64,000 nucleotides of DNA from an uncultured Chloroflexia bacterium. GTDB lineage: Bacteria; Chloroflexota; Anaerolineae; JAAYZQ01. Where the stretch lies: contig CAVOXA010000014.1 of NCBI GenBank assembly GCA_963700285.1, positions 32,001 to 96,000 of the forward strand. The letters are read 5' to 3'. Under the pieces are notes generated by a model. That model made no database searches, was not told the origin of the DNA, and saw only the letters and a list, made by a program, of their open reading frames with translations. The translations under genes were made by a program, and so were the position numbers. Below are positions 20,534 to 23,729 of the stretch, one piece after another; the stretch's first letter is position 1, and each line of letters opens with the position of its first letter.

Positions 20534-20905
20534 ATGCTAAAGGAGTTCAAAGAGTTCCTCACCCGCGGGAACGTAATCGATCTAGCCATCGCTGTCATCA
20601 TCGGCGGCGCTTTTGGCGCCATCGTAGCCTCGCTCATCGATGACATCATCATGCCCCTTATCGGGCTCTTGCTCGGTGGCGTGGATTTTGCCGCACTTTC
20701 CATCCAGGCAGGCGATGCCGTCATCACCTACGGCAACTTTATCCAGGCCATTGTGAACTTTGTCGTCATCGCGGCCTCGGTCTTTTTGGTGATGCGCGCT
20801 TACAACAAACTGCAGAGAGAAGAAGAGGCCGAGGAGCCGCCCGGGCCCTCAGCGGAGGAAGTGCTGCTGGCCGAGATCCGCGACCTGCTCAAAGAGCAGG
20901 CCTAG
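20534..20905 (+). CDS. mscL: Large-conductance mechanosensitive channel
   Basis: [31 protein letters not shown]...[25 protein letters not shown]-17-TACACT promoter at 20447-20475. Confidence 0.97.
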
Positions 20906-21327
20906 TAGCGGCCCTCATCCAGAAGCAGATCATCCCCACCCACGACGTGCCACTGGCGATCGGCCAGCGGAGCTGGCATGGGCGCTGGCCAGTAACCTGC
21001 CTGCGGCCCTGGGGCCAATCCGGCTGGATTGCCCCCACCCTGGATCACGACCACCGGAGGGTAGTTGCCCTGGTCGGTCCGCCGCCGTTCCCCGCCAGAC
21101 TGATCCCGATTGCGCCGCGTGAGCGCAACCAGCAGTAGCAATGAGGTAGGAATGCTCGCGGCCACACCGCAGATCACGCCGACCACCACGGCCATCGCCT
21201 CGGTACTCATCTGCCGACCCACAACCACAGCCAGAACCGCAGCAAATACAGCGCCCACCACCAACACCACGTGCCTGGCGTTTCCGCCAAATCCGCCCAC
21301 ATTCAAGCCCTGCTGATCGTACTCCAT
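20902..21327 (-). CDS. Small membrane protein (2 TM + Pro-rich tail), last gene of the FtsK operon
   Basis: Two hydrophobic helices, [10 protein letters not shown]; stop overlaps the mscL stop. Confidence 0.75.
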
Positions 21328-21330
21328 CCA

Positions 21331-21660
21331 TCACCCCCTGTCCCAGCTGTCCTGGCTCACAGCCCAACTGCCAGCCGGCTTCGCATCCAGCTCCTCCAGG
21401 GGCGCTTGAACCAGGGTTCCAGGCACTGGTATGCGCTCCTGAGAGCCAGCAGGTCCGTCAGCGACTGCCAGTCGAAAAGACAGACTCAGCGCCCGCAGCG
21501 CATCGGTGAATCCCTGTTCATAGCCATCTGTGAAGGCGAGACGCCGGACATCGTATTCCTGGTCGTCGCCAGAGGCCACAGCCAGCGCAGATCTCATCGT
21601 CTCATGGGTACTGGCCAGAATCCGAAGCACATCCTCGCGGAACCACAGATCCAATGCCAT
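21331..21660 (-). CDS. Small hypothetical protein of the FtsK operon
   Basis: GGGAG RBS; MALDLWFREDVLRIL...GYEQGFTDAL; tightly spaced between neighbours. Confidence 0.72.
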   Translation of the reverse strand: MALDLWFREDVLRILASTHETMRSALAVASGDDQEYDVRRLAFTDGYEQGFTDALRALSLSFRLAVADGPAGSQERIPVPGTLVQAPLEELDAKPAGSWAVSQDSWDRG

Positions 21661-21674
21661 ATCTTGTTCTCCCT

Positions 21675-22829
21675 CTAGTCCTGTCTTCCAGGCTTCAGGC
21701 GCAAGCGCAGGCGCCTGGTCAGAGCCACACCTCGAGCTGCAGATCCACTGCTGTCCTGCGCTACAGCCAGCAAGGGCTTCCCCCCGCTTCGAAGCCCTTT
21801 CACCATCTCCCGGACTTCACCATCGGTGATGTATGCCGCCTGTAGGCGCGTCAAGCGTCCCTTGGCCACCACCACAAAGTCCCCCTGCCCCATCAACCGC
21901 TCCGCCCCCGTGCCTGCCAGCCCCGTCGCCACCTTGGCATCCTCAGGACTGGCCACGCTGCCGACCAGTCGCACCGGAAAGTTGCTCTTTACCAGACTGC
22001 CGATGACCGACGCTGCCGGCTTTTGGGTGCAAGCCACCACGTGCAGCCCCGCCTCCCGCCCCCGCTGCGTAAGCCGGGTCACCGCGCCCTCCACCGCCCG
22101 GCCTCCCACTTGAACCAGGTCCGCCAGCTCGTCCAGTACGATCACTACCCGCGGCTCCGAGCGCCCCTCCAGATCCCGCTGCTCCATCTCTGCTACCATC
22201 CGGTTCAGCACCGCCACTACCTCATCCAGCCGCGTCACGACCGGCCCCAACAGGTGCGGCAGCCCTTCAAAGGGCATCAGCCCCCTGCCTTTAGGGTCCA
22301 CAAGTACAAATTGCAGTTGACGCTGGCTATTGTACGCCGCCAGCGAAGCAACCATCGTCCGGGCCAGCGCCGTCTTGCCCGAACCCGTGGTGCCCGCCAG
22401 CAGCACGTGGACGACATTCGGACTGGGCAGCCGCAGCAGTAGGGGCGCCCCTTCCCCATCCAGACCCAGCACGGCCGTCACAGGAGGTACCAGCCTTGCG
22501 CCAGCCGTGCCAGCCTGACGCACCGCCAACTGACGGCCCGCTAACTGGCGGCAGAGGTCCCACAGGCGGATCACCTGTCCGTCGCTGCGAGGCACCTCCA
22601 CCTGCATACGTCCATCCTGGCGGTATACCCTGCAAGACGGCACCCCCAGGCTGAGAGCCAGCTCCTCGGCCAGGCCGGCCACCTGCCTGACTTTGACCCC
22701 AAAGGGCGTGGTCAGATCATAGCGCACCATCCGCGGGGTGACCTTGCCCCCGGTCACCCGGCCCGGTACCTTGTGGCTGGCCAACACCAATTCGATGCGG
22801 TCCGCCTGGTAGTGTAGAACCTTGCTCAT
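21675..22829 (-). CDS. FtsK/SpoIIIE-family DNA translocase ATPase (alpha+beta motor only; no TM or gamma domain)
   Basis: GTTGSGKT Walker A, LVDPKG, VLDELAD Walker B, GREAGLH, TQKP, NFPVR, GAERLMGQGD; GGAGG RBS. Confidence 0.92.
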   Translation of the reverse strand: MSKVLHYQADRIELVLASHKVPGRVTGGKVTPRMVRYDLTTPFGVKVRQVAGLAEELALSLGVPSCRVYRQDGRMQVEVPRSDGQVIRLWDLCRQLAGRQLAVRQAGTAGARLVPPVTAVLGLDGEGAPLLLRLPSPNVVHVLLAGTTGSGKTALARTMVASLAAYNSQRQLQFVLVDPKGRGLMPFEGLPHLLGPVVTRLDEVVAVLNRMVAEMEQRDLEGRSEPRVVIVLDELADLVQVGGRAVEGAVTRLTQRGREAGLHVVACTQKPAASVIGSLVKSNFPVRLVGSVASPEDAKVATGLAGTGAERLMGQGDFVVVAKGRLTRLQAAYITDGEVREMVKGLRSGGKPLLAVAQDSSGSAARGVALTRRLRLRLKPGRQD

Positions 22830-22892
22830 GCCTGTACTCCTCCGCGCCGACGTCTTGCTGGCGCGCTGCCGATTCTTTGCCGGGACACGGGC

Positions 22893-23357
22893 TCAGCCGG
22901 CTGCCGCGATCCGGCTCCGGACCGGAAAGGCCACGATCTTGCCGTTGCTGGCTGCCGGACATTGCTGCGCAGCAGTTTGTGGTGCAGGTGCATCCACCAG
23001 CATGCGCAGTGCGCAGCCCAGGCAGGTCCGGGCATGCCTGACAGGCACCACCTTGGCGGCACAGGCAGCCTCCTGCAGGCGCACCTCCGGCGGATCATCG
23101 TCCCACACCTCCGTACGCCCGTTGAATCGGATGGTCAGCGGGCTCGGCGAGGTCTGCCGCAGAGAAAAACAAAGGTGTTGGCAGTTGATCGCCTTCACAG
23201 GACAGGCATGGCAGATCTCGGGGCCCACGGCGTTATCGCCCTCGACGATCTTGGTGCAGATGATGCGGCCGGCCTTGGATACTGCACGATGGTCGCACGC
23301 ACTCTGACCCAGCCTTGCCACGGGTTGCTTGCCAGCAATCGGAAAGTCACGGATCAT
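22893..23357 (-). CDS. Cysteine-rich hypothetical protein (possible Zn/Fe-S binding)
   Basis: GGAGGGAG RBS before ATG at 23357; CDH, CHACP, CQHLC, CLGC motifs. Confidence 0.7.
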   Translation of the reverse strand: MIRDFPIAGKQPVARLGQSACDHRAVSKAGRIICTKIVEGDNAVGPEICHACPVKAINCQHLCFSLRQTSPSPLTIRFNGRTEVWDDDPPEVRLQEAACAAKVVPVRHARTCLGCALRMLVDAPAPQTAAQQCPAASNGKIVAFPVRSRIAAAG

Positions 23358-23389
23358 ATGTCTCCCTCCCAGCCTGCGCCTCCAGGGGA

Positions 23390-23662
23390 TCATCTAGTCC
23401 CAGGTACTGATTCCTCTCCAGGTCTCGACGGCGCCGGCTCCAGTCCAATCGGGCGCAGGCCTCGCGGACTGCGGGCCCTACGCTCGATGAGGCCGCCACG
23501 CTCCAGCGCGTGCAGGTAGTAATGAACGTGCGATCTACTGCAAAGACCCACCGCCGCCCGGATCTCTTCGTAGGTCGGCGGAAAGCCATTGCCAGTCACA
23601 AAAGACTGGACGAAATACAAGACGTCTTCCTGCCGATTCCTCTGTCGCTTTGCCATTTCCAT
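23390..23662 (-). CDS. LexA-type winged HTH protein lacking the S24 autopeptidase domain
   Basis: RQEDVLYFV...GFPPTYEEIRAAVGLCSRSHVHYYLHALERGGLIER...PRGL matches the LexA DNA-binding domain; ends at 90 aa. Confidence 0.85.
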   Translation of the reverse strand: MEMAKRQRNRQEDVLYFVQSFVTGNGFPPTYEEIRAAVGLCSRSHVHYYLHALERGGLIERRARSPRGLRPIGLEPAPSRPGEESVPGTR

Positions 23663-23687
23663 TTGCTGACCTCCATCTCCTAAAATC

Positions 23688-23729
23688 GAACATTTGTTCT
23701 ATTTTACCAGAACCCGCACAATTCGTCAA
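23688..23729 (-). promoter_or_regulatory. sigma70 promoter with an SOS (LexA) box immediately downstream of -10
   Basis: Minus strand TTGACG (23729-23724)-17bp-TAAAAT (23706-23701); GAAC-ATTT-GTTC at 23688-23699. Confidence 0.82.

Follow-up and report, generated by a model that had tools for sequence, protein, structure and literature searches.

In full-length FtsK the motor is joined to an anchor of four transmembrane (TM) helices and to a gamma domain that reads FtsK orienting polar sequences (KOPS), and in Escherichia coli the ftsK gene also has an SOS promoter, dinH. The archaeal Ced system (CedA/CedB) combines a damage-induced ATPase with a membrane partner, CedB being of the HerA/VirB4 type. 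Published accounts describe Bacillus subtilis SftA as an additional motor of the FtsK family that has no anchor and is found at division sites (PMC4744071), the Streptomyces TraB/Spd system (pSVH1) as an FtsK-like motor with small membrane proteins that serves a filamentous host and occurs also on phages (PMC4447253), and YneA, SosA, ChiZ, DivS and SidA as small membrane proteins encoded beside lexA and under LexA control (PMC6851548). Here we describe a short FtsK-type motor gene and a gene for a membrane protein with two TM helices (the 2-TM protein), which stand together in a five-gene operon in a 64,000 nucleotide stretch of DNA, the window (contig CAVOXA010000014.1 of assembly GCA_963700285.1, positions 32,001 to 96,000), from an uncultured Chloroflexia bacterium placed by GTDB in the Anaerolineae. 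No description of this module was found in the open-licence literature that we searched. Its conserved core is an FtsK without anchor and gamma domain together with the 2-TM gene, and we tentatively read it as a damage-induced, sequence-blind back-up pump, in which the motor, tethered by the 2-TM protein, would clear DNA caught in closing septa.

A short FtsK motor and its putative two-helix partner

Two sets of loci, which overlap in part and were not de-duplicated, were compared: set A, 80 loci taken from 150 listed matches to the 2-TM protein, and set B, 80 loci picked by their FtsK gene. The short FtsK gene stands immediately upstream of the 2-TM gene at 74 of the 80 set A loci, four of the remainder being cut by contig ends and two holding a lone 2-TM gene, and in set B the 2-TM gene follows within 1.3 kb downstream of FtsK at all 75 testable chromosomal loci. 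The association of a motor-only FtsK with a 2-TM gene, pointed out in an earlier note made from the window sequence, is almost invariable among relatives, and the note's expectation of a conserved SOS box is likewise borne out by the box which lies upstream of the unit at 66 of 74 loci in set A and 72 of 76 in set B against 1 of 382 control windows. The five genes of the window did not prove to be a conserved unit: a lexA-type gene is present at 34, the Cys-rich gene at 17 and the gene that we call ORF4 at 18 of the 74 paired set A loci, and all three of these optional genes occur together at only five.

The 2-TM protein is matched in 178 of 301 Anaerolineae genomes, seven of these matches being weak (E > 1e-4) and the count missing the divergent carrier G013; in a sample of the phylum dominated by other classes the 2-TM profile is matched in 6 of 301 genomes, and within the class it is matched in none of 20 genomes of one family, f37. 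The titles of the 80 best FtsK loci name the Anaerolineae or its subgroups, the Chloroflexota or the Chloroflexia, with one given just as 'bacterium', and a cultured species, Litorilinea aerophila, is among the carriers. A plasmid database of 1091 records returned at best 32-36% identity, to ordinary FtsKs. Eight classes of phage marker were found at none of 162 chromosomal loci, each class being matched at 3-6 of 15 viral loci, so that the module is not confined to prophages or integrative and conjugative elements and the view of a chromosomal, non-mobile unit is upheld; at the window locus itself, mobile genes were sought by comparing five flanking proteins with Pfam and by reading the open reading frames (ORFs) over 15-30 kb.

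The motor scores 42 bits against PF17854 (cut-off 22.9) and 113 bits against PF01580 (cut-off 24), and its closest solved structure is the Pseudomonas aeruginosa FtsK motor (E 1e-69), ahead of EccC-type proteins (4e-41) and a conjugative coupling protein (6e-20). The Walker A and Walker B motifs, the arginine finger and the sensor Gln are each invariant in 64 of 64 aligned motors. At the equivalents of five of the FtsK DNA-contact residues that PMC7321959 names (R632, K643, R661, K377, R380 and K657), Lys or Arg is found in 63, 63, 62, 60 and 40 of the 64 for R632, K643, R661, K377 and R380 respectively. The motor would likely act as a hexameric translocase of double-stranded DNA. A hydrophobic segment is absent from 118 of 119 short motors and the gamma profile is matched in none of 161 chromosomal short FtsK ORFs, whose median tail is 61 amino acids (aa), which confirms the absence of both membrane anchor and KOPS-reading domain. 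Candidate matches to PADLOC defence models were set aside: the reference proteins are much longer, and the matches extend over no more than their generic FtsK domain.

The idea that the motor is a 'split FtsK', one part of a housekeeping gene that became divided, is not supported. The host also encodes two intact full-length FtsKs, each with four TM helices and a gamma domain, and the short motor is therefore an extra rather than a split replacement. In a quick tree of 104 motors, from which three long FtsKs had been filtered by length and one unpublished genome left out, the short motors form one clade on a long branch, separate from 29 housekeeping FtsKs.

Two TM helices are predicted in 117 of 119 members of the 2-TM family, and in 81% of these 117 the residues following helix 2 carry a net positive charge. 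Helix 2 carries an invariant GxxxG, the loop between the helices is short, and the Pro/Gln/Gly-rich tail bears two conserved short motifs; these features suggest an anchor that oligomerises, has its tail in the cytoplasm and exposes no domain outside. The gene linkage makes a physical pairing of motor and 2-TM protein reasonably probable. Complex prediction for the two proteins gave a score of 0.01 against a mark of 0.32, which we count neither way. Natural fusions were also sought: of five longer matches two had FtsK, and all were judged frameshift artefacts from their out-of-frame-looking sequence. An atlas search with the 2-TM protein returned only unnamed Chloroflexota clusters, and PDB sequence searches with ORF4, ORF7 (a further optional gene, see below) and the 2-TM family gave nothing below E 0.08.

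LexA of the Chloroflexota uses a GAAC-N4-GTTC motif, in agreement with the box before lexA in the genome to which the window belongs. That genome holds 96 such motifs in 7.05 Mb, of which 21, including that of lexA, lie near promoter hexamers, and with so few boxes the one directly behind the -10 element of the operon is not a chance occurrence. Since the box precedes not only lexA but also, again among these 21, one gene that we take to be UvrB-like and two that we take to be RecA/ImuA-like, we regard it as the organism's SOS box. PMC3323433 also gives this motif, as the Gram-positive LexA site. Promoter-like sites number four in 5.5 kb, against 1.0 +/- 1.0 in shuffled sequence. The earlier note had placed a box GAAC-ATTT-GTTC downstream of the -10 element; the position stands, and the letters are those of the plus strand (the operon strand is given in Table 1). 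A lexA-type gene lies within 3.2 kb upstream at 35 of 70 set A and 44 of 64 set B loci. Altogether, binding of LexA at the box and induction by DNA damage are very probable predictions. As a separate observation, two similar genes of unknown kind in this genome (G000), about 390 codons long and with an ATPase-like motif (C15:76458-77636 and C19:13753-14931), each have an SOS box ahead of them.

The five-gene minus-strand operon with promoter and box is confirmed in the window, where all of the proposed ORFs are present and each is preceded by a ribosome-binding site (Table 1). Beyond the convergent mscL, the other neighbours are a divergent ThiS/MoaD-like gene and 2-oxoacid dehydrogenase genes, and the G+C content of the operon matches that of the window. 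In comparison with the orthologous locus of a same-genus genome, the ratios of non-synonymous to synonymous substitution rates (dN/dS) are 0.20 for gene 1, 0.19 for the Cys-rich gene, 0.15 for FtsK, 0.25 for ORF4 and 0.16 for the 2-TM gene, similar to those of the neighbours mscL (0.10) and the ThiS/MoaD-like gene (0.25), and we conclude that all five are real, maintained genes under purifying selection. Genes 2 and 4 have no family above noise in Pfam, PHROGs, NCBIfam or PADLOC. Two contigs of 151 bases from one metatranscriptome fall in the region of the Cys-rich gene at a depth of 2; DNA carry-over is possible, and we do not regard them as evidence of expression.

Table 1. Features of the operon and its convergent neighbour in the window
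Feature	Position	Strand	Remarks
Promoter, sigma-70-type, TTGACG-17-TAAAAT, extended -10	23701..23729	minus	same layout in relatives
LexA (SOS) box GAAC-AAAT-GTTC, predicted operator	23688..23699	minus	1 base past -10
Gene 1, LexA DNA-binding domain only, 90 aa	23390..23662	minus	PF01726, E 8e-15; no peptidase/dimer domain
Gene 2, Cys-rich protein, 154 aa, unnamed family	22893..23357	minus	optional gene
Gene 3, FtsK alpha+beta motor, 384 aa	21675..22829	minus	PF17854 and PF01580; core gene
Gene 4 (ORF4), small two-helix protein, 109 aa, no known family	21331..21660	minus	optional gene
Gene 5, 2-TM protein, 141 aa, hydrophobic segments 19-37 and 51-69	20902..21327	minus	core gene
mscL, convergent neighbour, outside the unit	20534..20905	plus	PF01741

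Three further observations concern the surroundings. The 2-oxoacid dehydrogenase genes at window positions 24370-29393 seem split into overlapping frames, suggesting indel errors in the assembly, and upstream of mscL lie a DUF6782-like putative metallopeptidase (19763-20368, a weak match) and a 283-aa protein with no Pfam match (18873-19724).

Accessory genes, host copies and phage copies

A second copy of the operon on contig C9 of the own genome, which the earlier note overlooked, lies directly behind the true lexA, in the order lexA, two boxes, a full-length second lexA, the Cys-rich gene, FtsK, an ORF that resembles part of ORF4, the 2-TM gene, ORF6 and ORF7; its FtsK is 83% identical to that of the window. 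Gene 1 of the window is 55% identical to the N-terminus of the full-length second lexA on C9, scores 49 bits against a cut-off of 111 with TIGR00498, and has no peptidase S24 domain; it is evidently a truncated second lexA, the full-length form of which heads the operon in many relatives. It is excluded as a cleavable repressor, and may serve to tune the promoter or persist as a relic under weak constraint. This helix-turn-helix (HTH)-only form was seen only in the own genus, where a second genome holds it as a protein of 88 aa. We take the window copy as a whole to be a duplicate, seen in the own genus, that has retained ORF4 but has lost ORF6 and ORF7, and in which only the DNA-binding domain of the second lexA is left. 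A lone 2-TM gene on contig C10 (L002:6114-6625), likewise missed before, has its own SOS box behind a TTGACA/TACAAT promoter; it carries a frameshift near its 3' end in this genome and is intact in the same-genus genome. In the second lexA on C9 (L001:8022-8627) Phe replaces the catalytic Ser that the same-genus orthologue retains, which may reflect a non-cleavable variant or a sequencing error, and several second lexA genes of relatives likewise have no recognisable cleavage site or dyad.

Among the accessory genes of set A, ORF7 is present at 29 and ORF6 at 26 of 74 loci. ORF6 is DUF6504 in 25 of its 29 members, and at one locus (L050:10537-15978) a cassette of RecA-like, Y-polymerase, DUF6504 and DnaE-type genes lies about 2 kb downstream of the operon. 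A stand-alone ImuB-C has been described in the same layout, between Y-family polymerase and DnaE-type genes, in two reports (PMC6511836, PMC3765255), and by synteny, rather than by alignment with published members, we infer that DUF6504 is ImuB-C-like. An SRAP gene stands between the short FtsK and 2-TM genes at two loci of one family, f23 (L071:8484-9170 and L080); a comparably sized gap is seen in L070, a further f23 locus. The commonest neighbour of the operon is holA, at 27 of 80 loci and on the opposite strand. ORF7 has no PHROG match. At one chromosomal locus (L111:8408-8703) 18 repeats of an 8-bp unit lie in the interval that separates the 2-TM gene from ORF6.

The Cys-rich family comprises 87 clusters; eight Cys are invariant, and the protein is likely metal-binding. 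Its model is of low confidence (predicted local distance difference test, pLDDT, 54) and has no Foldseek match, atlas matches reaching at most 0.80, and a Pfam scan of 30 of the 87 relatives found two isolated fusions and nothing that recurs. The longer members of the family have a common conserved C-terminal motif. In P0185 the Cys-rich domain is fused to a divergent protein of the 2-TM family, and P0209, P0211, P0212, P0214 and P0217 are distant Lys/Glu-rich relatives of the domain, one of them fused to a 996-aa repeat protein.

The pair is also carried by tailed phages. Fifteen IMG/VR tailed-phage contigs encode a short FtsK, with best-segment identities of mostly 40-57% and 37% at the lowest. 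The 2-TM gene follows FtsK at all 14 uncut phage loci and the box is upstream of none; most of these loci have terminase, portal, tail or integrase genes, and ParA or actin-like partition genes lie nearby at 8 of the 15. Ten phage motors end in a Pro-rich linker and a C-terminal domain of 50-65 residues, and a profile of this domain also recovered two held-out cases. In one of these the domain is fused to the motor and in the other it is encoded by its own ORF, placed between the motor and 2-TM genes, so that it is present at 12 of 15 phage loci against none of the 161 chromosomal copies. Its model has three helices (pLDDT 92.6), and its top structural matches are mostly winged helices, with Z at most 5.8, the level expected of a common arrangement; the FtsK gamma profile (3.6%) and Foldseek gave no match. 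We regard this HTH-like domain as a candidate DNA reader. A scan for exact repeats near the 12 HTH-bearing phage copies found clt-like 8-mers in at most 2-4 copies, as in background tiles.

ORF7 occurs on seven further viral contigs, and on three of these it lies near different genes of the FtsK family that have genes for membrane proteins beside them. In L257, L260 and L261, all viral, the ORF7 homologues lie beside TraB-like FtsK genes with multi-helix membrane neighbours, and in one of these FtsKs the C-terminal end resembles the HTH-like domain, at an E of only 0.94.

In the quick tree the chromosomal copies cluster by host family, with the phage copies scattered among them at four or more positions; monophyly of the phage copies (12 phage against 24 chromosomal copies) is rejected (approximately unbiased test, p-AU 1e-4). 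The branching points to repeated exchange between hosts and phages, in one direction or the other, the root of the tree lying on a very long branch.

What the pair may do

We tentatively prefer the reading in which the pair is a damage-induced back-up pump at the septum. DNA damage would lead to cleavage of LexA and expression of the operon; the motor would assemble on double-stranded DNA at the membrane by way of the 2-TM protein and would pump regardless of sequence, and its site would be the septum, where it would clear DNA instead of sharing it. Because broken DNA is without useful KOPS polarity, a blind motor could clear it either way, and phages, needing one specific DNA moved, would add a reader domain. 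Two points favour septal clearing: the operon encodes nothing able to cross a finished wall, and the phage copies sit with partition genes, which link the pair to segregation. The short inter-helix loop, together with the lack of any recurrent neighbour that encodes a wall hydrolase or channel, fits action on septum-trapped DNA, as by SpoIIIE, and the DUF6504 and SRAP genes indicate that other SOS-type genes have been drawn into the operon.

Several observations weigh against this reading. SpoIIIE without its gamma domain shows frequent pauses and reversals and gives poor support to sporulation (PMC4744071), so that a motor blind to sequence may clear intact chromosomes badly; the host, moreover, already has two complete FtsKs. 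The equivalent of the DNA-contact residue K657 is Lys or Arg in none of the 64 motors and Pro or Ala in 61, although the host's own full FtsKs also have no Lys there (they have Gln). Among near-complete genomes of the class, four of five tested have lexA and only long FtsK-family genes, and the function of the module is dispensable in the class. Boxed lone 2-TM genes (L002, L036 and L221, with L038 behind lexA and L214 before ORF7) suggest that the 2-TM protein may act without the motor.

An alternative that we consider unlikely, though the strongest competitor of septal clearing, is that the pair moves chromosomal DNA between the cells of a filament after damage as a repair template, phages using it to spread along the filament; the module would then be a bacterial, FtsK-built counterpart of Ced, a blind pump in the host, with HTH-bearing phage versions spreading or partitioning phage DNA without virions. 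Many Anaerolineae are filamentous, which we count in its favour. Tailed phages carry the same pair, most of them with a domain such as a TraB-like reader would have, and some viral ORF7 genes lie near other FtsK-family genes; in addition, PMC4447253 has SpdB2 homologues on actinophages, where they may spread phage DNA, and PMC7332563 reports septal channels, of unknown genes, in the Chloroflexales, which are another class. Against sharing, the operon encodes no extracytoplasmic domain, wall hydrolase or multi-TM channel, the scores with TraB (26 of 800 bits) and CedB (15 of 700) are very low, no clt-like 8-mer array rises above background near the HTH-bearing phage copies, and the 2-TM profile is unmatched throughout the f37 genomes.

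That the 2-TM protein is an SOS division inhibitor of the Anaerolineae, like YneA, SosA or SidA, the motor keeping DNA off the stalled septum, is in our view distinctly unlikely. The known Gram-positive inhibitors are small membrane proteins encoded beside lexA with little shared sequence (PMC6851548), the operon is often directly behind lexA, and the lone boxed 2-TM copies are under selection (dN/dS 0.19). The known inhibitors, however, have a single TM helix and an outside C-terminus, whereas the 2-TM protein has two and a likely cytoplasmic tail; of the five lone cases looked into, four come from genomes with a further copy linked to the motor, and the fifth (G311) has a second, boxless copy behind FtsK; and phages keep the pair together without a box.

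It is improbable that the motor acts in repair itself, by stripping proteins or moving forks or ends in mutagenic or break repair, with the membrane protein serving only to position it. The co-transcribed DUF6504 and SRAP genes belong to repair-linked families and holA is the commonest neighbour, albeit on the opposite strand, but DUF6504 and SRAP are optional and absent from the window copy and from all 15 phage copies, no nuclease partner recurs, and an invariant membrane partner would be unexpected in such a role. Finally, a remnant of a phage or mobile element, or a module that serves in phage exclusion or defence and plays no part at the host's septum, would fit the interleaving of phage with chromosomal copies and the patchy distribution of the module, but is very improbable given that none of the 162 chromosomal loci matches a phage marker, that the copies cluster by host family, that all genes are under purifying selection and that the PADLOC matches are only to a generic domain.

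Significance and comparison with known systems

The module would add an undescribed arm to the SOS response of a large and mostly uncultured class. Anaerolineae are common in sediments and sludge, and the pair provides a candidate for their damage checkpoint. It also offers a natural experiment on FtsK design, motor and partner being blind in hosts and joined by a helical C-terminal domain in phages, so that two small genes would suffice to test the role of gamma-type domains and, for multicellular Chloroflexota, the crossing of septa by DNA. The present analysis contributes a C-terminal domain confined to the phages, a tree in which phage and host copies interleave, accessory genes of the ImuB-C-like and SRAP kinds, evidence of selection on each of the five genes, and an account of how the window copy arose.

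Compared with FtsK/SpoIIIE proteins, represented by the P. aeruginosa FtsK alpha-beta structures (PDB 2IUU and 6T8B), the short motor has the common alpha/beta architecture, Walker A and B motifs, arginine finger and most pore contacts, but is without the 4-TM anchor, linker, beta-domain insertion and gamma domain, and has a separate 2-TM gene. SftA keeps gamma and cannot rescue septum-trapped DNA (PMC4744071), whereas the short motor is gamma-less and has both a membrane partner gene and an SOS box. The inhibitors of the YneA/SosA type differ from the 2-TM protein, which has two TM helices, a likely cytoplasmic tail and neither LysM nor any other Pfam domain, and in most loci has the motor gene upstream.

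The kinship to TraB or CedB raised in the earlier note was not borne out, as the scores fall far below the cut-offs (25.9 against 800 bits for the TraB model NF041214, 14.5 against 700 for the CedB model NF041017) and the nearest structure is FtsK. In contrast with TraB/Spd, the module is chromosomal and LexA-boxed, with no Rep or integrase, no reader domain in its host copies and no clt-like array found. EccC/EssC models give 56-58 bits against cut-offs of 347-778, the motor of the module has one ATPase domain, and no type VII secretion gene recurs beside the operon. The likeness to Ced is that of a damage-induced ATPase, here by prediction, with a membrane partner, which in the module has two helices and no detectable kin. 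On these comparisons we would place the module in the FtsK/SpoIIIE motor family, yet as a member distinct from housekeeping FtsK, SftA, TraB, CedB and EccC.

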